A stretch of DNA of 64,000 nucleotides, from NCBI RefSeq assembly GCF_963921235.1, contig NC_086108.1:28708001-28772000 (forward strand), given 5' to 3'. Positions 2,576-61,319 of this stretch are shown here, one piece after another. The translations under genes were made by a program, and so were the position numbers. The stretch's first letter is position 1. Each line of letters starts with the position of its first letter. Source of the stretch: Mobula hypostoma (Eukaryota). The notes beneath the pieces are model-generated. The model saw only the letters and a list, made by a program, of their open reading frames with translations. It was not told the DNA's origin and did not search any database.

Positions 2576-2722
2576 AAAACAAGAGATTCTGCAGATACTG
2601 GAATTCCAGAGAAACACATAAAAAATGCTGATGAAAGGTCTTGCCCCAAAATGTCGACTGTTTATTCCTTTTATCAGATGCTGCCTGACATGCTGAGTTC
2701 CTCCAGCAGTTTGTACGTCTCC
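2576..2722. mobile_element. Fold-back mini-PLE with degenerate 15-bp TSD
   Basis: PLE terminus in one orientation is joined to the inverted terminus. Flanks are ccatgactgaagtta (2561-2575) and ccattactgacgtta (2723-2737). Confidence 0.7.
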
Positions 2723-3531: not shown

Positions 3532-4297
3532 CAGACAAGAGAAAATCTTCAGATGCTGGAAATCCAAGCAACACACACAAAATGCTGGAGGAACTCAGCA
3601 GGCCAGGCAGCATCTATGGAAAAAAGTACAGTTGACGTTTCAGGCTGAGACCCTTTAGTAGGACTGGAGAAAAAAAAGATGAGAAGATTTAAAAGGTTGG
3701 GGGAGGGGAGAGAGAAATACAAGGTGATATGTGAAACTGAAGGGGGAGGGATGAAGTAAAAAGCTGGAAAGTTGATTGGTGAAAGAGATACAGGGCAGGA
3801 GAAGGGGGAGTCTGATAGGAGAGGACAGAAGGCCACGGAAGAAAGAAAAGGGGGGAGGACACCAGAGGGAGGTGATGGGCAAGCAAGGAGATAAGGTGAG
3901 AGAGGAAAAAGGGAATGGGGAATGGTGAAGGGGGATGGGCATTACCAGAAGTTCGAGAAAGCCATGTTCATGCCATCAGGTTGGAGGCTACCCAGACAGA
4001 ATACTGTATAAGGTGTTGTTCCTCCAACATGAGTGTGGCCTCATCACACCAGTAGAGGAGGCCATGGATTGACATATTGGAATGGAAATGGGAAGTGGAA
4101 TTAAAATGGGTGGCCAATGGGAGATCCCACTTCTTCTGGCAGACATAGTGTAGGTGCTTAGCAAAGCAATCTCCCAATCTACCTCGTGTCTCACCGATAT
4201 ACAGGAGGTCACACCGGGAGTCACTTCACCTGTGAGTCTGTTGGGGTCATATACTGTGTCTGGTCTGCTGAATTCCTCCAGCATTTTGTGTGTTTTG
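3532..4297 (-). mobile_element. Penelope-like element remnant (GIY-YIG end plus terminal repeat, 5' inversion)
   Basis: ORF 3968-4177 (GDCFAKHL..DLPLATHFNS..LEEQHLI) matches the PLE endonuclease C-terminus. Inverted pieces lie at 4220-4295. Degenerate TSD cctgtaatatccca (3515-3528) / cctgcaatatctca (4298-4311). Confidence 0.85.
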
Positions 4298-4624
4298 CCT
4301 GCAATATCTCAGCTGATTTGAAGGAATATGGAATATTATAAGGAATCAGTACACTAAAATGCGATTTGGAATTTTTTGTAAGAGAAATTAATACCTGACA
4401 CGATTTCCAGTTATTGCTTGATAATGGGTTCAACTTGATCCTTCATTCCTGAGATAGTTGTCTTCTATTTAATATCTGAGATTAAGCATCGGATTATAAA
4501 TATGGAGCCAGAGATCATACCTTGCATCTGTCCTGACAATATAATGCACAGATATCTGTCTCTCTGGCAGAACGTCGACACCTTGAGTTACCTGAATAAT
4601 TCTAATTTAGATCCATCGCAAAGT

Positions 4625-7544: not shown

Positions 7545-7808
7545 AGGTGGCACGATAGTGTAGTGGTTAGTACCAGAGGGCAGGGTTCAATTCCTGTAAG
7601 AAGTTTGTACGTTCTCCCTGTGACCGCGTGGGTTTCCTCCGGGTGCCTCAGTTTCCTCCCACAGTCCAAAGACGTACCAGTTGGTAGGTTCATTGCCCAT
7701 TGTAAATTGTCCTGTGATTAGGCGAGGGCTAAGTCGGGGGTTGCTGGACGGTGCAGCTCAAAGCGCCAGACGGGCATGTTCCGCGCTGTATCCCAGTAAA
7801 TAAATAAA
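7545..7808 (+). mobile_element. V-SINE (HE1-like)
   Basis: ggtggcacgatagtgtagtggttag head, V-domain gttctccctgtgaccgcgtgggtttcctccgggtgc..tttcctcccacagtccaaagac, (taaa)n tail. Confidence 0.85.
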
Positions 7809-20252: not shown

Positions 20253-21059
20253 TGATAAAAAAAATGAGTATCAGTCTGATTGCAGTGTGTTGATGGCAAT
20301 ATTAACTCTGCAGTGAGAAAATTAAAATAAAATTTGAGGGGGAAATGCAAAGGCGAATCGATGAAGGATCTTTATCTGAAATTTTAACAGTTTCTTTTTT
20401 GTAAAGGTACTATCTGACCTGTTAAATGCTCCCAGCATTTTCTGGTTTCATTTCAGGCTTCTAGTTCTTTTCAAAAGTTTCCATCCAAAGTGGATGGGTC
20501 CTGAATAGCAAAGTAGAAATATTGAAACAGAAAATGGAATTTTGTTGTTTTTTCAAATGAATGGCAATAAATACAAAAGCAGGAGACTGATGTTGAGGGT
20601 ATTCAGGGAGACAGGATAGATCACCACTAAAATATTTTTAGTTTTAATAGTTTGCTCAATATGTCAGCAGAGAAGGTATCATATATATGTACAGGAGCTA
20701 CAGAAAGTATAGCTATAAATATAGGTATACTGTAACTCCAATAATCCAGCATCCAACTGTTCAGAAACTTCTCACTAGTCTGGAATGAGAGGAGAAGAAC
20801 ATGGGTAGTTCTGCAAGGCCAAGGTCCTGAGTACTTGTATATTTACTGCTCCCTTTAAGCTCAGTGGAGTCACTGGGAAATTTATTATGCAACTGTGTAA
20901 TATGTCAAAAAGAAGTGCACTTAGGTTGCAAATACCTGCCAGAGGAACTTGTGGGTTGAACAGCATTTGTGAGGGGAAAGGAACTGTTGGTGCTTTGGGT
21001 TGAAACCCTGCATCAGAACTCTGTATTTAGGTGTTATGTGTAACATTCAGTAGCTTCTC

Positions 21060-21965
21060 AAAGTTGAAAGTACATTTATTGTCAAAGTGTTTACACATTA
21101 TACAACCCTGAGATTCATCACCTTACACAAAACAAGAAACCTCAAAGAGCCCATTAAAAAAAGACTGACAAACACCCAACCTGCAGAGAGAAAAAAAACT
21201 ATGTCAGCAATAAAAGTAAGCAAATAGCATTTATAACAAAAGTGAGTCCTCAGACACGAAGCACAGAGCAGCCGAAGCAGGCCCACAGCCTCAGTTCAGC
21301 ACATTGCGGAGTAAATGCCATGAGCAGTGAGCAGAACTTGCCTGACCCTCTCCTCTGGTCCCAACGCTCTGTCTTTTCAATCCATCTGGCTCACTGTTTA
21401 AATTGTCCAAACATCAGGTCATTCCTCTCTCTAAGAGCTGGGCCTTGTTGCATCAATACACTCCGGGCCTGGACCCTGCTGCCACATTTCAGCCCATATC
21501 CAACTTTTCCAAATCAGCCCAGCACTTAGATCGATCAAATTTCGCTCTAGGTTTGGGTTAACGGACCCCAATCCTGCGTCTCCACCTTTGCTCCACTCCG
21601 CTCACCTTGACTTTGTCTCATATGTGCCTTGACTCACCCTAACTTCGCCTTGCACCTGCATGTTTCATCCCTTGACTTAGCCACACCTTTGCTCACTTTA
21701 TCAAAGGTTCAAACTGTCATTTAAAGGTTCAAAGGTTCATTTATTATCAAAGCACGTATCCATATACAACTCTGAAATTCACCTTCTCCAAATAGCCACA
21801 AAACAAAGAAAGAGCATGAAATTCGTTCGGAGAGAAACCCCCTCCCACCCATACAAAAGAGACTAACAGAACATCAACCCCCAAACACCCTCCCCTCACA
21901 CAACAAAATGGAAAAGGTACGGGTGATAAAGAACACAGAATATAAAAACCATGTCTGAAATGCAC
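21060..21965 (-). mobile_element. Two LINE/SINE 3'-tail remnants of Rex1 type (about 21060-21260 and 21700-21965)
   Basis: aagttgaaagtacatttattgtcaaagt and aaaggttcaaaggttcatttattatcaaag are reverse complements of the tail at 28600-28642. Confidence 0.5.
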
Positions 21966-24110
21966 CATTTTAAACCGGAAATGTCTCGCGCTACAAGTCT
22001 TAAGTATGATGGGTTATAAGAGTTTTACTGTATTATTTACTGAAGAAAGTTAAACCAAATAACTTTGAGCTGGGTTGTGTGGCTAGAGGCATAGCTTTTG
22101 AAAACTGGAATTCAACACCAAATCTGTCAATCAAACCAAACCCAGACTTCTGTGATTAACAATGAAGGCACCAAATTTCCAACCGTGCTTCAATCTGAAC
22201 CATCCTCATTGGGCCCCTGACATCTTCCAATGTGGTTTGGGCCACAGGAATTATACCATGTGCTTTTACACTTATCGAATACATCAATTTTACAAAGTGC
22301 CTTCTGAAGTGAAAAGCAGCAGGTTACAGAGAGTTGTGATCACTGTAGTTCCACAGTTAATGTTCGAAACTACAAATTTCAGAATAAAATAATCAGCATT
22401 TTAAAACAAGATGTTCTCACTTCCCAAGTGCTCCTCTGAACTCAGACCTCCTGTTGTGAGTCAGACCTATTTAAATCAAGCAATTAACTTTGCTAGATGG
22501 AATGCATTCTGCATTATCAAATCCAATGACTCATGAACCGAAACTGTCTCCTGATCTCTGTGCTGCGGATGGGGGCAGCAGGCTACAGGATGAACAATTA
22601 CCTCTTAATCACAGTGCAGTGATGAAGACAATGCGGGATGCCTATTATATTGTCTTTCATACTCTGAAAGGCAGTAAATGCGATATTCCTTGAGAACCAT
22701 AATTGACTCAATGTATTTACAAGTCACATAATTGGAATCCAGATACAATATTGAAAATATCCAAAATATAAAGACTGATTATAGAGATACATAGTATGAA
22801 AGCAGGCCTCTGAGTCCTTCTTGACATCAAGAACCCACTGAATTAATAAAATACTTGTTCTATTCTCCCTAAATTTATATCAATTCCCCCTCTCAGTTTC
22901 TACCACTCAACGACACACTAGAGGTAACTTAAAGTAGTCTTGCCTGGGTTTAACTTACTGAAGTTCAACAACTTGTACTTGTCTATGTTAAATCCCATCT
23001 CCCATTCTTTCGTCCACTTCACTAATTGATCTAGGACCTATTATTCTTGGATAACCCTTTTCACTGTCCACTATACCACCAATTTTGGTGTCATCCACAA
23101 ACTTAATAATGATGCCCATTACAGTCTCATCCAGATAGCTTAAGATAGTATTTCAAAAGACATCTAAATTTATATTATGTGGCACTTTCAATACAACATC
23201 TCCTAAAAGATATCAAAAGTGCATTAACAAATAAAAGTGATTCTGAGCCACAAAGAAAAGATGCGCAAGGTTTTGGTTGGAAAGGACGACTAAGGGAGTG
23301 TCTAACAAGACAGTAGCGAGAGACAAGGAAGTGAGAAAGCCTGAGAGAATTCCAAAATCCTCATATGCTCATTCAGTTAAATATTGAATAACTTAGTCAT
23401 AATAATCAATTATCCATGGCTGCTAATCTCCAGCCTTTTTTACCTTGGGCAAACACAAATAGTCAATACTTCAGATTAACTGATATGTTGGATTGAAAAA
23501 TCTGACCATATTTCAAATATGCCTCAGGGAGTGTACTGTAGGACATGCCAAGTTTGACAAGGATACCTTCACCGCTCTGTATTTTGCTGCTGCTACCTTC
23601 TTCAGTCTATGATTTTTTTCCTCTCTATGTTCTAACTGTACCCATTCACTCATTGAACAGCAACCTTGTTTACAGCTTATCCTCATGCTCATCCTGTCAG
23701 TACTCTATCAGATACATAAGCCTCCCCCAAGCTTCCTGCAGCTCAACAAGCTTCTTTCATCTTCTTAGTTCTGTCAAAGATTCTTCAACCTGAAATTTTT
23801 AGCTCTGCTTTTCTTCACATAGATGTGCCCTGGCCTGAGTACTTCCAGCATTCTTATTTCAAAGTATTTGTCCAGAAGGAGAGAATACGTTAGCATAGCG
23901 GTTACCGCGACACTATTACGGCTTGGAGTGTTGGAATTTGGAGTTCAGTTCTGGCAACCTCTGTAAGCAAGTCTGTACGTTCCTTCCCCTGTGTGCGTAG
24001 GTTTCATCTAGGTGCAACCAGCTTCCTCACAGAGTCCAAAGATGAACCGGTTAGTAGGTTAATTGTTCATTGTAAATTGTCCCATGATTAGGCTAAGGTT
24101 AAATATGTGG

Positions 24111-24322
24111 ATTTAAAAACGTAAACACGAGGAATTCTGCAGATGCTGGAATTTCAAGCAACACACATCAAAGTTGCTGGTGAACGCAGCAGTCCAGGCA
24201 GCATCTCTAGGAAGAGGTACAGTCAACGTTTCAGGCCCAGACCCTTCGTCAGGACTCGGCCCGAAACGTCGACTCTACCTCTTCCTAGAGATGCTGCCTC
24301 GCCTGCTGCGTTCACCAGCAAA
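24111..24322. mobile_element. Young fold-back mini-PLE with perfect 12-bp TSD
   Basis: TSD ttaaatatgtgg at 24099-24110 and 24323-24334. Arms at about 24174-24240 and 24256-24321 are inverted repeats. Confidence 0.9.
24220..24256 (-). ncRNA. Minimal type-I hammerhead ribozyme motif in a PLE terminal repeat (core intact)
   Basis: Minus strand reads AGUC-CUGACGA-A-GGGU(CUGG)GCCU-GAAA-CG-U-U/GACUG. This gives helix I AGUC:GACU, the conserved CUGANGA and GAAA boxes, a palindromic ACGU helix III and a GUU cleavage triplet. Confidence 0.7.
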
Positions 24323-25784
24323 TTAAATATGTGGTTTGCTGGGTGGCGCAGCTCAAAGGGCTGGAAAGGCCTGTTCTGTGCTGTGTCTCTAAATAAAAAT
24401 AAAACATGTTTATCTATGTCCTGGCAAAACATAAACCCAGAATACAGAGGACCCTCACACTCACTCTCAGCTGAATACCATTTTATTGCTTGGATTAATT
24501 GGATATTTAACATTGGAAACCTGGTTGGGAACTGATCTTATCCAATGCTGAAGGACTTGGAATAGTGTTCAGTCCTACAGATGTTGACTGACCTACCACA
24601 TCTTCCACAGCTGGTATTCTCTGTGAGTGCCAATAATGTAGTGCTAGGTACCTCTCCGCAGGTGGTGTGTACATGTGTAGTTTCTATTCATAATTGTATG
24701 GTTAGGAAGCGAAGGAAATCATTTAAGTTCTCACCTGATTGCCCTCTGTCCCTGGTTCAGCAGCACAGAGAAAGATCGGAGCTTTTCATTTCTGGTTACA
24801 GCTGATGTTATTGAGTCTCAGCATGAGTGAGAGAGTGGGAGTGCAAATTCAAGTGAGTATGCAAAAGGGAGCGAATGAGATCAAAAGTACAAGAATGTGT
24901 GAGACAGACAGAGAGACAGGGAGACCTTGACTGTTCAGCTGGAAACCATATAAAGAAGTGAAGTTATCCACTAGACCAGAAAAGCCCCAGGGAACCATGG
25001 TCATGTGAATATTCACATCACAGAACCTCACAGACCGATAATAAGCCAACAAATCAAAATAAAAAATAAGGATAGGCAGCAGCATGACTGCTTTATGCTC
25101 CTGTTACCAAAGCAACAAGATCTTTTGCTTCTGCCACATAATGCAATGGACCAAACTGGAGCATGGGTGCCACCCCCTCACAGACACCCCCACCCACTGC
25201 ATATGGTACCATTCACTGTGACAGATGCAAGGAATCAAATGGTTCAGAAAGGCCACATCATTTCAAGCGGTGGTCTCCATTTGCCCAGAACAAGCTACAG
25301 AAGCAGGTATTAGTGCCTTGAAGATCAAGTCAGAGGAATTGTTGGCTGTGCTCTTTATGCCCTTAATTAACTAACAGCCACCACTGTGACAATTAGCCTG
25401 AGTTGCCATAGAGATCGGATAATGAGCTGACTAACTCTCTTCTACCTTTTTTTAGAAAGATGCAGTTATTTGCACATTTTTATTTTCTCTAATTTTGATC
25501 TTTTTACAGTGTTGACTCCCTGCAACTTCTGTGAAGGATTAGCATTCAATTATCAGAGTTTTGCATTTTACCATATTTCCATCTTGCTTCCGACTGTTAG
25601 AATACTTGTAAGACAGACTCAAAAAAATAGCCACATCAATTCTGCCTGAATAAAACAGAACTGAGCATCTTCATTTAAATTGTGACCTTACTTGTGCTTT
25701 GCTCGAGATAAAACTTCCAAATCAGATCTTATTAATCTGACCCAATCCAGACTGATAGGAATTTGGATTGTGTTGAGGTCATTC

Positions 25785-25922
25785 TTCATTCCCAAAGAAG
25801 GGTCTTGGCCTAAAACGTCAATTTTTATCCTTTTCCATAGGTGCTGCCTGACCTGAGTTCTTCCACATTTTGTGTGTGTTGCTTTGGATTTCCAGTATCT
25901 GCAGAATTTCTTGTGTTTGTGA
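25785..25922 (+). mobile_element. PLE terminal repeat remnant
   Basis: gaagggtcttggcctaaaacgtc..gctgcctgacctgagttc..ttccagtatctgcagaatttcttgtgttt. Confidence 0.7.
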
Positions 25923-26374
25923 TGAGAATCTAATGGCATTTGGCAATGACTGAATCAACAACTTCCCAAGGACAGAGCGAGGTTCATTGTGCAGCTTACA
26001 TCCGTTCCTTTCAGCAAAAGTGATCTCAACTAGTGTTCTGTGTGAACAAGTCCAATCCATTATAACTCTATTTGCACATAGGTTTGAGATACCCGACTTA
26101 TTCATGTCGACTATGGTGCCAACCAACCTGGGCCCATCTTACTCTGAACCTTTACTATTCACGTACTTATCCAAAAAGCTTTTAAATGTAGTTATTGTAC
26201 CGACCTCAACCACTTCCTCTGGCAGCATGCCCCATATATGTACTAATCTGTGTGTAAAGTTATCCCACAGATCCTTTTTAGATCTTTCATATCTCACCTT
26301 AAATGCATATCCTCTATTTTCGTAGTTCATTTCCTTGGAGAAAAAAAAGACTGTGTGCTTTAACCCTATCTAAT

Positions 26375-28643
26375 AGATGAGTGTGTCCCCACTAAATCAT
26401 TCAGAGTCTTCCCCAATCAGAAGCCCTGAATGAACTGTGAGATCTGAAGTTTGCTGAGGGCCAGATCAGAGGTATTCAAGTCTGGAGACCGAGAATGCTA
26501 CAAGAGGTGCAAGTATGATGGCCAGAAAGCCACCTCATGGACGAAGTGGAGATTCTAGACTAAACTTGAATCAACAAGAGGTGCTCGACAGCTGTGGTAG
26601 GGCTTGAATGCCATCATCTCCTACAAAGTTAAATCAAGCCACATAGGAGACAGAAGGGCTTCACTTCCAGATGAACTTAATGCCTTCAGGGCTCACTTTG
26701 ACTGTCAGAACATGGAGGAGCTATCGTAATCCCCAACATCTTCTAATGATCCTCAGCTCTCAGTGTCTGAAGCTGACATGTGGATTGCCTTCAGGAGGTT
26801 GAATCTACAGAAATCATCCAGACCAGATGGGGTACCTGGCCACGTACTAAAGACCTGTGCTGACCAAATGGTTGGTGTGTTATCTCTATATCTTTAACCT
26901 CTCACCGACAGTGTACGGTACTCACCTGCTTCAAGCAGGCTTCAATTATACCGATGTCCAAGAAGATCGCGGTGACCCACCTCAATATACTTACATCCAC
27001 AGTGATGAAGTACTTTGAGAGGTTGGTGATGAAACATAACAGCGATTCGGATCTGCTCCAATTTGCCTGCCGGAGCAACAGGTCCACAGTAGGTGCCATC
27101 TCACTGGCTCTTGGCTCAATCCTGAAACGTGGACAGTCAGGATGCGTACATCAGGATGCTCTTTATCAACTACAGCTCTGCATTTAATACCATCATCCCC
27201 TCAGAACTAATCAATAAGTGCCATGAGCTTGGCCTCAAAATCTCCTTGTGCAGTTTGATCCTGGATTTCCTCACCTGTAGGCCCCAGTCAGTTCAGATTG
27301 GCAACAACATCTCCTCTATGATCTCAATCAGAACAGGCGCACCACAGGGCTGTGTGCTTAACCTCCTGCTCTACTTAAGTTACATCTATGATTGTATAGC
27401 TAAGCAGAGTGCCAATGCCATATTAAGGTTTGCTGACGACGCCACTGTTGTGACCCGAATCAAAAGTGGTGATGAATCAGCATACAGGAGGGAGATTGAA
27501 AATTTGGCTGAGTGGTGTTATAACAACAACCTCTCACTCAATGTCAGCAAGACAAAGGAACTGATTATAGACCAGGAGAGAGAAACCAGAGGTCCATGAG
27601 CTGGTCCTGATCAGAGTATCAGCGGGGAAGAGGGTTAGCAACTGTAAATTCCCAAGTGTTACTCTTTCAGAAGATCTGTTCTGGATGCAGCACATAAGTG
27701 CAATTGTGAAGAAAGCACAACAGCACCTCTACTTCCTTAGGAGTCTGCGGAGATTCAGCATCTAAAACTTCGACAAACATCAATAGGTGTGTTGTGGAGA
27801 GTATATAGTGTGGGCACGTGGCCAAGTGGTTAAGGCATTGGACTAGCTACTTGAAGGTCGTGAGTTTGAGCCCCAGCCGAGGGAATGTGTTGTGTCCTTG
27901 AGCAAGGCACTTAATCACACATTGCTCTGCAACAACACTGGTGCCAAGCTATATGGGTCCCAATGCCCTTCCCTTGGACAACATTGGTGTTGTGGAGAGG
28001 GGAGACTTGCAGCATGGGCAATTGCTGGTCTTCTATACAACCTTTCCCAGGCCTGCGCCCTGGAGAGTGAAGACTTTCCAGGTGCAGATCCATGGTCTCG
28101 CAAGACTAGAGTATATAGACTGGCTGCATCACAGCCTGGTATGGAAGCACCAATGCCGTTGAACAGAAAGTCCTACAAAAGGTAGTGGATTTGGCCCAGC
28201 ACATCACAGGTAAAGCCCTCCCAACAATTGAACACATCTACATGAAATGCTGTCATAGGAAAGTAGCATCCATCAGCGGAGATCCCCACCAAACAGAACA
28301 TGCTCCCTTTTCTCTGCTGCAATCAGGTAAAAGATACAAGAGCCTCATGACTCGCACCACCAAGTTCAAGAACAGTTACCATTCAACCTTGAGGTTCTTG
28401 AACAAAAGGGGATAACTACACTACCCTGTCCTTTACCTCAGGTTCTAGTTATTTACTGCTGTTTATTTATATTTGCATTTGCAGAGTTTGTCGTCTTCTG
28501 CACTCTAGCTGATATTTCATTGATACTGTTATACTTACTATTCTATAAATTTGCTGAGTATGCCCACAGGAAAATGAATCTGAGGGTTGAGTAAGGTGAC
28601 ATCTATGTACTTTGATAATAAAATTTATTTTGAATTTTGAACT
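26375..28643 (+). mobile_element. Rex1/Babar-like LINE, about 2 kb, 5'-truncated, many stops
   Basis: [71 protein letters not shown]; tail tttgaattttgaact. Confidence 0.92.
27809..28107 (+). mobile_element. tRNA-derived SINE with CORE-like domain and RTE-like tail, 11-bp TSD
   Basis: A box tggccaagtgg, B box gagtttgagcc, CORE-like gtgtccttgagcaaggcacttaa. TSD agagtatatag at 27798-27808 and 28108-28118. Confidence 0.85.
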
Positions 28644-36235: not shown

Positions 36236-36283
36236 CTCCTTCCGACCACATCCATCCAGTTAAAACACAGGTTCTACCTCCAC

Positions 36284-36474
36284 ACAGCACACACAAAATA
36301 CTGGTGGAACTCAGCAGGCCGGACGGCATCTATGGAAAAAATACAGCTGACGTCTTGACCCGAAAAGTCAACTGTACTTTTTTTCCATAGATACTACCTG
36401 GCCTGCTGAGTTCCTCCGGCATTTTATGTGTGTTGCTTGGATTTCCAACATCTGCAGATCTGTTTGTGATTTGA
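36284..36474. mobile_element. Fold-back mini-PLE with perfect 13-bp TSD
   Basis: TSD gttctacctccac at 36271-36283 and 36475-36487. Arms ggaactcagcaggcc..atctatggaaaaaa and ttttttccatagat..ggcctgctgagttcc are inverted. Confidence 0.85.
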
Positions 36475-41400: not shown

Positions 41401-41630
41401 CGCATGGCATAGGCAATAATCCAAGATTACTACCTTTGAGGTCCTGCTTCTCAGCTTCCTTCCTAACTCCCTGTAGTCTGTTTTCAGGACCTCCTCCCTT
41501 TTCCTACCTATGTCATTGGTACCAATACGTACCACGACCTCTGGCTGTTCACCTTCCCACTTCAGGATATCATGGACGCGATCAGAAACATCCTGGACTC
41601 TGGCACCTGGGAGGCAAACTACCATCTGCA

Positions 41631-42594
41631 AACACGAGGAATTCTGCAGATGCTGGAAATTCAAGCAACACACATCAAAGTTGCTGGTGAACGCGGCAGG
41701 CCAGGCAGCATCTCTAGGAAGAGGTACAGTCGACATTTCAGGCCGGGATCCTTCGTCAGGACTAACTGAAAGAAGAGCTAGTAAGAGATTTGAAAGTTGG
41801 AGGGGGAGGGGGAGATCCAAAATGATAGGAGAAGACAGGAGGGGGAGGGATGGAGCCAAGAGCTGGACAGTTGATTGGCAAAAGGAATATGAGAGGATCA
41901 TGGGACAGGAGGCCCAGAGAGAAAGAAAAGGGGGGGAAAGCCCAGAGGATGGGCAAGGGGTATAGTGAGGGGGACAGAGGGAGAAAAAGGAGAGAGAGAA
42001 AAAGAATGTGTGTATATAAATAAATAACGGATGGGGTATGAAGGGGAGGTGGGGCATTAGCAGAAGTTTGAGAAGTCAATGTTCATGCCATCAGGTTGGA
42101 GGCTACCCAGACGGAATGTAAGGTGTTGTTCCTCCAACCTGAGTGTGGCTTCATCTTTACAGTGGAGGAGGCCATGGATAGACATATGAGAATGGGAATG
42201 GGAAGTGGAATTAAAATGTGTGGCCACTGGGAGATCCTGCTTTCTCTGGCGGACAGAGCGTAGATGTTCAGCAAAGCAGTCTCCCAGTCTGCGTCGGGTC
42301 TCACCAATATATAGAAGGCCACATCGGGAGCACCGGACGCAGTGTATCACCCCAGCCGACTCACAGGTGAAGTGTCGCCTCACCTGGAAGGACTGTCTGG
42401 GGCCCTGAATGGGCCCTCCTGTCTTCTCCTATCATTTTGGATCTCCCCCTCCCCCTCCCACTTTCAAATCTCTGACGAGCTCTTCTTTCAGTTTGTCCTG
42501 ACAAAGGGTCTCAGCCCGAAATGTCGACTGTACCTCTTCCTGGAGATGCTGCCTGGCCTGCTGCGTTCACCAGCAACTTTGATGTGTGTTGCTT
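41631..42594 (-). mobile_element. Young PLE 3' fragment (GIY-YIG) with inverted 5' terminal repeat, 15-bp TSD, inserted in CR1 ORF1
   Basis: ORF 42057-42383 FTCESAGVIHCVRCSRCGLLYIGETRRRLGDCFAEH. Inverted repeat at 42414-42594. TSD aaactaccatctgca at 41616-41630 and 42595-42609. Confidence 0.95.
41727..41763 (-). ncRNA. Hammerhead ribozyme motif in a PLE terminal repeat (core boxes intact, helix II/III slightly mutated)
   Basis: Minus strand reads AGUC-CUGACGA-AGGAUCCCGGCCU-GAAA-UG-U-C/GACUG, with a GUC cleavage triplet. Confidence 0.6.
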
Positions 42595-43680
42595 AAACTA
42601 CCATCTGCATTTCTTTCTTGCATCCACAGAATCGCCTGTCTGACCCCCTAACTATAGAGTCCCCCGTTACTGCTGCCTTCTTCCTTTCTCTACCTTTCTG
42701 ACTCTGTTCCAAAGGCGTGACCACTGTTGCTTTCCCCAGGTAGGCCGTCCCCCCAACAGTACTCAAACAGGAGTACTTATTGTTAAGGGGGACAGCCACA
42801 GCGGTACTCTCTAGTATCTGACTCCTGCCCTTCCCTCTCCTGACTGTTTCCCACTTATCTGTCTCCCGAGGACCCAATGTGACTACTTGCCTATAGCTCA
42901 TCTCTATCACCTCCTCACTTTCCCTGATCAGACGAAGGTCATCGAGCTGCATCTCCATTTCCCTAACCCGGTCCCTAAGGAGCTGTAGTTCGAAGCACCT
43001 GGTGCAGATGTGACTGTGTGGGAGGCTGGGAGTCTCTGTAAATGAACAAAATCAGTGTAGACAGCTAGTGCAGACAATGGACTGCCTTCATACAATGCTT
43101 TCAATGATTTCAACTTCCAAACCTTCATTCTCATTGTAACATTCAAGATGATTGTTGATACCTACAAATTTTTCGTATTTCCTAACTTGAGGTAGGGAAG
43201 CATTTTGTGCCATGCCAAACGTGTTGGCTCTTCCTCCTGTCCACGGAACTTTGAACAACTAAATGCACACATCAAAATAGAGCAGATAAAATTAAAATCC
43301 ACCGATGACAGAAATATAGTGTGCTAACGTGAGTAAAAAGCTGCAGTAATATTTTTGGCAGGGACCATTTTTGATGTGGAGGTGTGGAAAGCACAAAGGT
43401 AAAGTTGATGCGTTGTTTTAACTGTAGCTTCAAAGGAAAAATAAAAGATTATTTATTGTTGCATCAGATTAAACACTATCCAAATAAAAAAAGTAATTAT
43501 TAATAACATAGCAGATGCTAGAAATCTGAAATAAAATCAAGCATGTCAGGCAGTATCTGTGATAACAGAAAGGGTTAATTTTTAGCTTGGTTCTAAATAA
43601 TTATAATAAAAAAAGGTAATTTCACAATTAAAGACCCATTGGAGAAAATACAGGATCAGATAATGACATACTTTTTACAC

Positions 43681-46211: not shown

Positions 46212-48650
46212 CCACAAGACCAAAAAACATAGCAGCAGAATTAGGCCATTCAGCCTATCGAGTCTGCTCTGCCATTCCCATCATGGCTGATCCTGGATCC
46301 CACTCAACCCCATATGCCTGCCTTCTCCTCCTGACTGATCAGCAAATGATCAACTTTCGCCTTAAAATATACACAGCCTCCACCACAGTCTGCAGTAGAG
46401 CATTCCTCCTTACCTCTGTTCTAAACAGTCTCCCTCAATTTTGAGGCTGTGCCCTCTAGTTCTGGATACTCCCACCAAAGGAAACATCCTCTCCACATCC
46501 ACCCTATCTAGTCCTTTCAACATACGGTAGGTTTCAATGAGATCACCCCGCATTCTTCTAAATCCCCGTGAGTACAGGTTCAAAGCTGCCAAACACTCCT
46601 CATATGTTAACCCCTTCATTCCCAGAATCATCCTTGGGAACCTTCTTTGGACTCTCTCCAATGACAACACATCCTTTCTGAGATATGGGAAAACTGCTGA
46701 CAATACTCTTGTTCTATTCCCCTTGAAATAAGTACCAACATTGCATTTGCCTTATTTACCACACACTCAACCTGCAAGTTAAACTTCTGGGAGTTTTGCA
46801 CGAGGACTCCTAAGTTTCTCTGCACCTCTGATGTTTGAACCTTCTCACCATTTAGATAATAGTCCACACTTTTACCAAAATGCATTATCCTACATTTCCC
46901 AACACTATATTCCATCTGCCAACACACATCAAAGTAGCTGGTGAACGCAGCAGGCCAGGCAGCATCTCTAGGAAGAGGTACAGTCGACGTTTCAGGCCGA
47001 GACCCTTCCACAGGACTAACTGAAGGAAGAGTTAGTAAGAGATTTGAAAGTTGGAGGGGGAGGGGGAGATCCAAAATGATAGGAGAAGACAGGAGGGGGA
47101 GGGATGGCGCCAAGAGCTGGACAGGTGATTGGCAAAAGGGATACGAGAGGATCATCGGACAGGAGGACCGGGAAGAAAGACAGGGGGGGGGGAACCCAGA
47201 GGATGGGCAAGGGGTATATTCAGAGAGACAGAGGGAGAAAAAGGAGAGTGAGAGAAAGAATGTGTGTATAAAAATAAATAACAGATGGGGTACGAGGGGG
47301 AGGTCGGGCATTAGCGGAAGTTAGAGAAGTCGATGTTCATGCCATCAGGTTGGAGGCTACCCAGATGGAGTATAAGGTGTTGTTCCTCCAACCTGAGTGT
47401 GGCTTCATCTTTACAGTGGAGGAGGCCGTGGATAGACATGTCAGAATGGGAATGGGATGTGGAATTAAAATGTGTGGCCACTGGGAGATCCTGCTTTCTC
47501 TGGCGGACAGAGCGTAGGTGTTCAGCAAAGCGGTCTCCCAGTCTGCGTCAGGTCTCGTCAATATATAAAAGGCCACATCGGGAGCACCGGACGCAGTATA
47601 CCACCCCAGCTGACTCACAGGTGAAGTGTCGCCTCACCTGGAAGGACTGTTTGGGGCCCTGAATGGCAGTAAGGGAGGAAGTGTAAGGGCATGTGTAGCA
47701 CTTGTTCCGCTTACAAGGATAAGTGCCAGGAGGGAGATCAGTGGGGAGGGATGGGGGGGGACGAATGGACAAGGGAGTCGCGTAGGGAGCGATCCCTGCG
47801 GAAAGCAGAGGCGGGGGGAGGGAAAGATGTGCTTAGTGGTGGGATCCCGTTGGAGGTGGCGGAAGTTATGCAGAGTAATATGTTGGACCTGGAGGCTGGT
47901 GGGGTCGTAGGTGAGGACCAGGGGAACCCTATTCCTAGTGGGGTGGTGGGAGGATGGAGTGAGAGCAGATGTACGTGAAATGGGGGAGATGCATTTAAGA
48001 GCAGAGTTGATAGTGGAGGAAGGGAAGCCCCTTTCTTTAAAAAAGGAGTACATCTCCCTCGTCCTGGAATGAAACGCCTCATCCTGAGAGCAGATGCAGT
48101 GGAGACGGAGGAATTGCGAAAAGGGGATGGCGTTTTTGCAAGAGACAGGGTGAGAAGAGGAATAGTCCAGATAGCTGTGAGAGTCAGTAGGCTTATAGTA
48201 GACATCAGTGGATAAGCTGTCTCCAGAGATAGAGACAGAAAGATCTAGAAAGGGGAGGGAGGTGTTGGAAATGGACCAGGTAAACTTGAGGGCAGGGTGA
48301 AAGTTGAAGGCAAAGTTAATAAAGTCAACGAGTTCTGCATGCGTGCAGGAAGTAGCGCCAATGCGGTCGTCGATGTAGCGAAGGAAAAGTGGGGGACAGA
48401 TAGCAGAATAGGCACGGAACATAGGTTGTTCCACAAAGACAACAAAAAGGCAGGCATAGCTAGGACCCATACGGGTGCCCATAGCTACACCTTTAGTTTG
48501 GAGGAAGTGGGAGGAGCCAAAGGAGAAATTATTAAGAGTAAGGACTAATTCCGCTAGACGGAGCAGAGTGGTGGTAGAGGGGAACTGATCAGGTCTGGAA
48601 CTTTCCATCTGCCACTTTTTTTGCCCATTCTTCCAATTTGTCTAAGTCCT
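46212..48650 (-). mobile_element. CR1 3' portion (second subfamily) interrupted by a PLE; pieces 46212-46921 and 48603-48650
   Basis: ORF 46410-46703 PYLRKDVLSLERVQRRFPRMI..RGDLIETYRMLKGLDRV; the CR1 sequence resumes after the TSD. Confidence 0.9.
46922..48602 (-). mobile_element. Penelope-like retroelement (Neptune-type), 5'-truncated RT plus Cys linker plus GIY-YIG, 12-bp TSD
   Basis: ORF 47634-48608 NNFSF..QTKGVAMG..PSYA..RYIDD..PFLD..YYKPTD..YSSSHP. Linker YPCKRNKCYTC. VVYCVRCSRCGLLYIDET follows a frameshift. TSD ttccatctgcca at 46910-46921 and 48603-48614. Confidence 0.96.
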
Positions 48651-54300: not shown

Positions 54301-55080
54301 AAGAATTCAAACCAGTCAATCAGCATTTGTGGAAAGAGAAATCAAGTTATGTTTCATGTCAGTGACCCTTCATCAGAACTGACATCGTCTTCATGGGTTT
54401 TGTCCAGGTTTTTGACACATACATGATGAGGGTTGGTTGGTCATATTCAACTGTGCTATTGGTCCCTCCATCCTAAAGATGGTCTCCTGGCTCCATCCTC
54501 TAAACCACATTGGCCATCCCATTAATCCTACCCTAACCTACTCTGCCCTCCCCACAAACCTATCAAATTACACACCACCAAGATTCTACTTCTCAGCTGC
54601 ATGCTAGAGATGGTAGCAAATTAACCCTACAATCCACACATTTTTGTATATGGAATGAAAGTGCAACGTCTCGGGGGATCCCATATGGTCACAAGGAGAG
54701 GGAATAACATGGACTGGAGGTCAGGATTGAACACGGATCACAAGAGCTGTGAGACAGCCGCTCTCCTAGTTGTGCCACCACAAAATCTCTATAGCTGTGT
54801 TCCCAACACTCATTACATTCCACTTGATCTTTCCTTCTCTTGCCAACATGCATTCGTTCCCAAATCTGCAGATTTCAAGTCCACATTTGCTTGTTTAATT
54901 CTTTTCCTTATCACCAACTCTCCACTCCATCTACACACTTGGAAAGATAACTCAGCAGGTAAGCAGTGTGATGAAGAGGGGCCAGTAGATCAAGGTGGTG
55001 AGGGATACTCGGTTCCCTTCCTCAGTAGTACTTCTCCTGAATCTTTCCCATCTACCATCACCTTAAATATTCACCCCATT

Positions 55081-59412: not shown

Positions 59413-60148
59413 AAACACAAGAGATTCTGCAGATGCTGCAAATCCACAGCAACAGACACAAAATGCTGGAGGAACTCAGCAGGTCTATGAAAATGAATAA
59501 ACCGTCGACATTTTGGGCTGAGACCCTTCTTCAGGACCGTTAAGGAAGGGGGAAGACACTAGAATTAAAAGGTGAAAGGGAGGGGATGGAGGACAGGTTA
59601 GAAGGTGATAGGCAGTGGGCAATGTAATGGGTTGGAGAAGGAGGAATCTGATAGTAGAGGAGAGTGAACCATGAGTAAAAGGAAAGGAGAGGCACCAGGA
59701 GGTGGTATAGGGCGGTGAGGAGAAGAGGTAAGAGGCCAGAGTGGGGAAGGGTGAGGGAAATTCTTCCCAGAAGGAGAAATCAATGTTCATGCCCATCATG
59801 TTTGAGGCTACTCAGACAGAACATAAGGTGTTGCTCTTCCAACCTGAGAGTGGCAAAAGCAAGTGCAGAGCTTCATGGGGTGTTGGTGAGGCCTCCCCTT
59901 CCCTTCCACCCCCTCCCATGGTTCACTCTCCTCTCCTATCAGATTCCTTCTTTTCCATCCCTTCACCTTTCCCATCCACCTGGCTTCAACTATCATCTTT
60001 TAGCGAGTCCTTCTTCCCCTCCACCCCACCTTTTTATTGTGACACCTTTCCCTTTCCTTTCCACTCCTGAAGAAGGGTTTCAGCCCAAAATGTTGACTGC
60101 TTATTCATTTCTGTAGATGTTGCTGAGTTCCTCCTGCATTTTGTGAGT
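59413..60148. mobile_element. Fold-back PLE remnant (two long inverted arms) with degenerate 16-bp TSD
   Basis: Arm 59413-59855 versus inverted arm about 59890-60148. Flanks gctattcgtaatcata (59397-59412) and gctatacataatcata (60149-60164). Confidence 0.85.
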
Positions 60149-61319
60149 GCTATACATAATCATACTTATCAACATCAGTTCCTCCACCCCATGATAAATA
60201 AGCAATAGCAAATCACAGAAAGAAACTACAATGTCTTTATTAATAGAAAAAATCAAAATATCTCTGGCAACACCATTATCTGCTAAAAGCAACCATATTA
60301 TCCAGCACCGAGACAGAAAGCATTTTATATATATATATATATTTTTGGATAGAACAGGTGCTTATCAGTTCCAGAGAGAAAAGAAGTTTTATATTTAATT
60401 GTGTGTGCCTAATGGTTGGCTTATTAGGTTGCGTTCTCATAAAAGGTACAGGTTTTTCACTGTTCGTTGCACAATTCAATGACTGGTGGCAGACACAATT
60501 GAAGGAATCAACAGGAGGACATCCATCTGTGGTCATGTTGACCAAATTCACAAGATTTGACAGAGGCCTTTCACAGGTTTCGAAAGTTCATCAGAGAAAA
60601 CTTGTGTTTTCAGATGCGACTGGATCCATGCAGGACCAACCAGATTTCTGAAGTTTTGTTTATATCACCTGTTTTCTTCCTTGCTGTTTGAGGCAACACT
60701 CAAAGTTGCCATTCTTGTGGGCATGAGAAGAATGAATGCAGAAAGGAAATGATTAGCAGCAAAGAGCATTGATAGTCCTCAAGGATGTTTGCATCACCGT
60801 TTGCAAGGAAACATTAGTCCCATCACGTAGCACACCATGGCAAACAGGCTTCCACCTCCAATGCAGTTTTATTCGCAGTGGTAACTTGAACATACTGATC
60901 TGGCTTTAGTCTATATACACAGTGGTAGTCGTATATTATGTGAAAGTATTGGCACTATGTAACATCCTCTTCTTCTGAACAGTAGTCACGTCCCTAAAAA
61001 AAAATAAATAGCATTAATTTTAAAATCCAATAATGCATGTTCTTTCATTAAGTCACCTAATACAAATGGAATTAATGGCAATTCACTAATGTCATGCTAT
61101 CCAACATAAAATGATTTTGTTATTATTCAGACTTACTTTTTTCCAGTTCATATTGCATGCTGCAATTTATAAAATTAAATGAAACAACTTTGATTTAATT
61201 AAGCATTCGTTACTGGTCTGAATTTGAAAAAAGGCTTTTATCTCCTTCCAATTTACCATCACCAGTCCTTGAAAGTACAAGTACTTAAGGTCAAAGTATG
61301 ACTAGTGCAAAGTGGCAAT

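Follow-up and report, generated by a model that had tools for sequence, protein, structure and literature searches.

A minimal hammerhead motif at the apex of an inverted Penelope-like insertion in a ray genome, very likely sequestered in a hairpin

Minimal type I hammerhead ribozymes of metazoan Penelope-like elements (PLEs) are a class known since 2014 (Cervera and De la Pena 2014, PMC4209133). The report describes no cleavage of monomers and low cleavage of dimers, finds U common at H17 and terms the G10.1-C11.1 pair highly conserved, a trend that lies outside the catalytic core; dimer cleavage of PLE motifs is also described in reviews (PMC6765202, PMC6155905, PMC6466107). A CX2-5CxxC linker between the RT and the GIY-YIG domain at the C terminus was given as the mark of Neptune and Nematis, and inverted 5'-truncated copies with one-sided tails as typical of PLE insertions (Craig et al. 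2021, PMC8557442). For a PLE of Anolis, it was reported that the hammerhead cleaves only with protein, that ribozyme mutants had no effect on insertion in vitro, that the cut site was neither the start nor the end of any RNA-seq read, that two RT start sites define the tail and that both target strands are cut (Frangieh et al. 2024, PMC11167929). Hammerhead retrozymes have been reported in one chondrichthyan genome (bioRxiv 10.64898/2026.07.22.740005).

The window analysed here is the whole 64-kb stretch of Mobula hypostoma DNA. From 24256 to 24220, on the minus strand, all core letters of a minimal type I hammerhead were present. The predicted layout of helix I, CUGANGA, extra A, helix II, GAAA, ACGU and NUH was borne out, and the claim that this copy retains every core nucleotide held letter by letter (Table 1). 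The motif agrees with the published PLE hammerheads (PMC4209133) in being of type I, with CUGANGA plus one extra nucleotide, a 4-bp helix II, GAAA, a loopless palindromic 15.2/16.2, a NUH site and a short helix I, and also in its terminal-repeat position and the U-rich sequence upstream of it in long copies. It departs from them in that the 10.1-11.1 pair, here and in a sizeable part of the ray family, is G.U in place of the highly conserved G10.1-C11.1, and in that an inverted arm is predicted to bury the motif here; among the entries covered in Table S1 and Fig. S3 of that report there is no cartilaginous fish.

A descriptor of the minimal hammerhead, one of the checks proposed with the original prediction, gave this motif as its sole match on both strands of the 64 kb, and 1000 dinucleotide-shuffled windows gave 1 match when a minimum of 3 bp per helix was required and 0 when the minimum was 4 bp. 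The other proposed check had a negative outcome: no Rfam hammerhead match reached the gathering score in the window. A search of 23900-24500 at E up to 10 again returned no hammerhead, only seven miRNA-hairpin matches, all below gathering, of which that to mir-5681 (45 bits, gathering score 88) was rejected as a hairpin coincidence. The missing Rfam hammerhead match is to be expected, because the motif would have no helix III. The isolated 37-mer was not more stable than its shuffles (z -0.71).

Table 1. Coordinates of the insertion, its hammerhead motif and two longer copies in the window
Feature	Position	Strand	Remark
Left target-site duplication copy	24099..24110	+	exact 12-mer repeated at 24323-24334
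Right target-site duplication copy	24323..24334	+	exact 12-mer
Arm A, 3' end and 'tail'	24111..24158	-	copies end near 24159 equivalent or reach ~24123
Arm A, terminal-repeat sequence downstream of ribozyme	24159..24219	-	94% identity to 41630-41763 over 134 nt
Inverted tailless arm B, 5'-truncated	24255..24321	+	61/67 positions complementary to 24174-24240
Unrelated interspersed repeat split by insertion	23891..24397	+	both flanks match one continuous copy, 7594-7804
Minimal type I hammerhead	24220..24256	-	descriptor match and covariance-model match; G10.1.U11.1
Hammerhead helix I	AGUC 24256-53 with GACU 24224-21	-	4 bp
Hammerhead core CUGACGA	24252-46	-	agrees with CUGANGA
Extra A between 9 and 10.1	24245	-	as in minimal hammerheads
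Helix II	GGGU 24244-41 with GCCU 24236-33	-	4 bp, 4-nt loop
Hammerhead GAAA	24232-29	-	
C15.2 G16.2 U16.1		-	loopless; palindrome ACGU, palindromic 15.2/16.2, no stable helix III
H17 = U	24225	-	agrees with NUH; predicted cut between 24225 and 24224
Longer copy, same layout	41630..42596	-	tailed arm with GIY-YIG ORF end, inverted tailless arm 42414-42596, flanking duplication
Longest copy	46920..48605	-	broken RT, CX4CxxC linker, GIY-YIG (translation, homologs)

Among 87 loci encoding relatives of the element, 42 reached the protein end and 35 of them had at least 400 nt downstream. The strict descriptor matched 11 of these 35 usable relatives, always on the sense strand and 89-148 nt after the ORF, with 0 antisense matches and 0 in 100 shuffle rounds; the 11 represent about five families. 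In the other 24 relatives no strict match was found, with six near misses and 18 showing nothing within 700 nt. When candidates were selected by core letters only, 29 distinct ones were obtained (38 sites; 2.2 expected per shuffle round), in which helix I was 75% paired and helix II 92%, whereas sliding the partners left 24-49% paired. Four Watson-Crick types were found at the first pair of helix I, helices I and II covaried among families, and G10.1-C11.1 was present in 25 of the 29. A higher pairing of 92.5% was obtained for 15 hand-picked candidates, but as this rests on picked rows, the values for all 29 are the unbiased ones. The motif of one relative, L006, agreed letter for letter with that listed for the Acropora digitifera Neptune element in Fig. 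S3 of PMC4209133. A covariance model (R1), built from 15 hand-picked non-ray motifs, placed 24220-24256 second of 26 matches in the window (30.4 bits, E 9.6e-6), and the top ten were all family copies. The assignment to the minimal type I hammerheads of PLEs was supported, with the core and covarying helices kept across distant Neptune relatives. The conserved motif of the relatives, the Acropora identity and the R1 match make the family-level reading, which was already known, well supported.

Several observations on the relatives are recorded alongside. Inverted hammerhead-bearing copies were seen upstream of the ORF in marine relatives (L003:1087, L006:2059, L068:2352, L085:295; minus strand), indicating that the layout is clade-wide. 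Neptune-like ORFs with hammerheads also occurred in records titled bacterial MAGs (L081-L087), probably through contamination from a host animal. The zebra shark gene model P0017 has C-terminal residues compatible with hammerhead read-through, with a different helix I, and stretches of Neptune RT are present in several gene models of rays that bear the names of host genes. A DNA pattern scan of viral and metagenome contigs found nothing, and a protein scan of viral contigs gave no confirmed relative.

In the window, 24 family arms were detected at E <0.05 (37 rows at E up to 10). The placement of the motif in the terminal repeat downstream of a GIY-YIG ORF proved correct for the longer copies, in two of which 297 and 301 nt separate its start from the GIY-YIG stop; the hammerhead of the longest copy has core changes. 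The best of 627 protein hits came from Hypanus and Mobula (77-91% identity), in support of a PLE in an elasmobranch host, most likely a ray. Pfam gave EN at E 0.22 only and nothing for RT on the window's own element. The CX4CxxC linker, found in 46920-48605 and in relatives, together with the order of RT, linker and C-terminal GIY-YIG, is as in Neptune PLEs (PMC8557442). The element would accordingly be placed in the Neptune clade on its sequence, where the linker is common to Nematis and one relative shares the Acropora Neptune hammerhead. As to the surroundings, 13000-36000 consisted mostly of LINE-like and other repeats, inspection of 80 ORFs there by eye revealed no exon of a host gene, and eight window ORFs had no Pfam match. 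For 21000-27000 no RNA data set was listed, which speaks neither for nor against expression.

The family appears to be very large, since 101,923 contigs of organism A matched the related copy 41625-41925 at 85% likeness or more, although contigs are not equal to copies. For contigs of older subfamilies the match broke off where helix I begins, at its first base (41763; 179 and 183 loose ends), indicating that the shared sequence starts at the ribozyme edge. Both states of 11.1 occur in the family; C11.1 is carried by arm B and by the copies at 42495 and 36352, and U11.1 made up 65% of the contig depth for organism A and ~70% for two runs that are presumably RNA, shares that are inflated because the reference copy carried U. 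In run X21 the depth of U11.1 was ~5x that of the equally favoured U15.2. U11.1 is therefore not private to the copy at 24220-24256.

CpG-decay alleles at 41692-41755 (tail and ribozyme) were also noticed to be less frequent, in most cases by two- to several-fold, among the contigs presumed to be RNA than among those of DNA, as if younger copies were expressed. Contig depth showed a dip over the ribozyme and a higher tail in the same class of runs; contigs cannot rank these parts, and the reference was mismatched there. Three older copies (54343-54382, 20961-21020 and 23755-23852) have U in place of C on the 5' side of the innermost pair of helix I, and in most of them this U faces an A, which is possibly a compensatory change between subfamilies. 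As to core positions across genomic copies, whose lack of excess conservation would count against the original prediction, non-CpG variant sites numbered, among the rows listed, 0/37 in the motif vs 21/233 outside, a difference that was not significant (p 0.09) and that mapping bias favours. Since inserted copies decay neutrally, such a test is weak, and it is between source subfamilies and among relatives that conservation should be judged.

The insertion that holds the motif (24111-24322) is 212 bp long, 5'-truncated and flanked by an exact 12-bp target-site duplication. The interrupted repeat at 23891..24397 is presumably SINE-like; other copies of it run uninterrupted across the insertion point, without the insert. 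Tailed arm A ends with the 5' base of helix I, and inverted arm B begins in the helix II loop and holds the 3' half of the ribozyme only, with C11.1 and C17. The two overlap by 2 nt, the junction coincides with the ribozyme 5' edge of arm A, and the motif forms the apex of a 67-bp inverted repeat. At 11.1 and 17, two CpG sites, U stands in arm A where arm B has C. The bases 24111-24122 were matched by eye by the loose-end consensus of family contigs. An inverted 5'-truncated copy at the 5' end and a 30-40 bp tail at one end only are features shared with Neptune PLEs, but unlike in those described (PMC8557442), the arms here are so short that the junction falls in the ribozyme. The type I hammerhead also resembles that of non-LTR retrozymes, which is related to Penelope terminal repeats; those are tandem arrays (bioRxiv 10.64898/2026.07.22.740005), whereas 24111-24322 is a single inverted insertion and lacks the two or more tandem hammerhead units that define a retrozyme.

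A hairpin of ~65 bp is predicted for the insertion on both strands (z -17.9 and -14.0). When helices I and II were imposed, the cost was 3.1 kcal/mol for the bare motif, 4.1 kcal/mol for arm A alone and 36.5 kcal/mol for the whole insertion, in which the hammerhead fold was predicted to lie that far above the ensemble. Once nine upstream nucleotides of the inverted arm were included, the predicted probability of an unpaired A13 fell from 0.94 to 0.03, and in the predicted hairpin GAAA and the cut site are buried; the plus-strand 3' half of the ribozyme is predicted to be paired as well. On the minus strand the blocking arm B is transcribed before the motif, so that co-transcriptional folding should not rescue the hammerhead. 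A transcript starting within ~6 nt of 24256 would, by the model, escape the block. These results suggest (probability about 0.85) that 24111-24322 is a dead insertion of a Neptune-clade PLE, very likely non-cleaving because the core would be locked up in the long hairpin of any read-through RNA.

The further claim of a remaining ability of this copy to cleave, in a dimer or in trans, was not supported and is regarded as very improbable. The core letters are complete and H17 = U is frequent in published minimal hammerheads, but the hairpin penalty of 36.5 kcal/mol and the pairing of A13 stand against it, as does G.U at 10.1-11.1, where 25 of the 29 core-only candidates in relatives have G-C. 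A G.U pair at this position and a NUU cleavage site lower the hammerhead rate. The palindromic ACGU duplex would contribute a mere -1.7 kcal/mol, and there is no nearby tandem partner, the next same-strand copy with a complete core lying 17.5 kb off. That the motif is a chance match might be argued from the lack of an Rfam hammerhead and from its unremarkable folding energy, and is refuted by the descriptor counts against shuffles, the conservation of position and structure in relatives and the covariance model, leaving it a practically negligible probability. It is quite unlikely that the hairpin itself is the product of the locus, a double-stranded substrate yielding small RNAs against the family. 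The ~65-bp hairpin on both strands would suit this role, and in Penelope-carrying flies siRNAs were mapped to inverted regions of rearranged copies (PMC3681739); against it, no promoter or host gene is apparent at the locus, and its arms have diverged at 6/67 positions, as neutral decay predicts.

For the family as a whole, cleavage of its RNA is plausible from the conserved sequence, and by analogy with the described PLEs the motif in active source elements is probably a weak ribozyme, assisted by a tandem partner or by protein. A rival reading, in which the ray motif persists for a structural or protein-binding role and rarely or never cleaves in vivo, is given a modest chance. It would be in keeping with the poor cleavage of minimal hammerheads even as dimers, with the frequent U11.1 in the ray family, with the fact that uncut or rejoined RNA was the template of each ray insertion across the cut site, and with Anolis, where mutants left insertion in vitro unaffected and no reads end at the cut site; yet the Anolis motif does cleave in the presence of its protein, and across distant relatives the catalytic core is invariant with covarying helices.

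How the insertion arose may be sketched as follows. The GIY-YIG/RT protein of the element would have nicked an AT-rich target on both strands; a pair of short cDNAs, or a single one folding back, would have been made, both ending in the ribozyme region; and arms A and B would then have been joined through the 2-nt overlap. As judged from the sequence, fold-back and second priming for arm B would fit the one junction equally. The ray insertions, with two 3' end points ~36-48 nt apart and two arms each, fit the two RT starts and both-strand cutting of the Anolis type. Anolis PAc, which belongs to a different clade, Poseidon, also resembles the ray element in its AT-rich target and in a hammerhead ~100 nt upstream of two alternative 3' ends (PMC11167929).

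Six inverted insertions were recognised by eye in the window (2577-2714, 3535-4304, 24111-24322, 36279-36458, 41630-42596 and 59413-60149), and in three of this small sample (2577-2714, 24111-24322 and 36279-36458) the junction lay inside the 37-nt motif. Arms beginning at or within the motif numbered 10 of 24, four of which are old, so that their upstream part may fail to align. These junction counts are too small to claim a hot spot. The ends of the contigs formed no pile-up either, a feature that contigs would in any case be unable to show. It is a speculative and rather unlikely proposal that the hammerhead fold or a bound protein acts as a stall or template-switch hot spot, routinely producing self-silencing hairpin copies and possibly small RNAs. 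By extension, the two arms may come from different RNA templates, with a G10.1.U11.1 subfamily amplified beside the canonical one.

Some further joints were observed. A loose-end consensus of three contigs in run X21 showed the same junction type as the copy at 2628. A joint that 'goes back' from 41731 to 41658 has one end exactly at G1.1, the first base past the predicted cut; it was seen in one contig each of X1, X21 and X22 and may reflect the copying of cut RNA, or coincidence. The two young inverted pairs (24233/24262, and 41740 and its counterpart within 42414-42596) both carry U11.1 on the arm with the tail and C11.1 on the inverted one, and in the longer pair, 41630-42596, the arms also differ at the polymorphic non-CpG site 41798. 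These differences give a hint of two templates, or reflect recurrent mutation.

The class itself being known, the ray copy adds a new host; no paper devoted to a ray Neptune hammerhead family was found in the literature covered, most subscription journals lying outside that coverage. The known pairing of ribozyme and retroelement is thereby extended to rays, with very numerous copies (24 arms in 64 kb). The locus indicates that an intact core alone is not enough, as context can switch off a hammerhead. With this huge copy number, a pile-up of junctions at the ribozyme or the cut site could be tested from the genome alone, and such a pile-up would reveal whether cut RNA ever serves as template.
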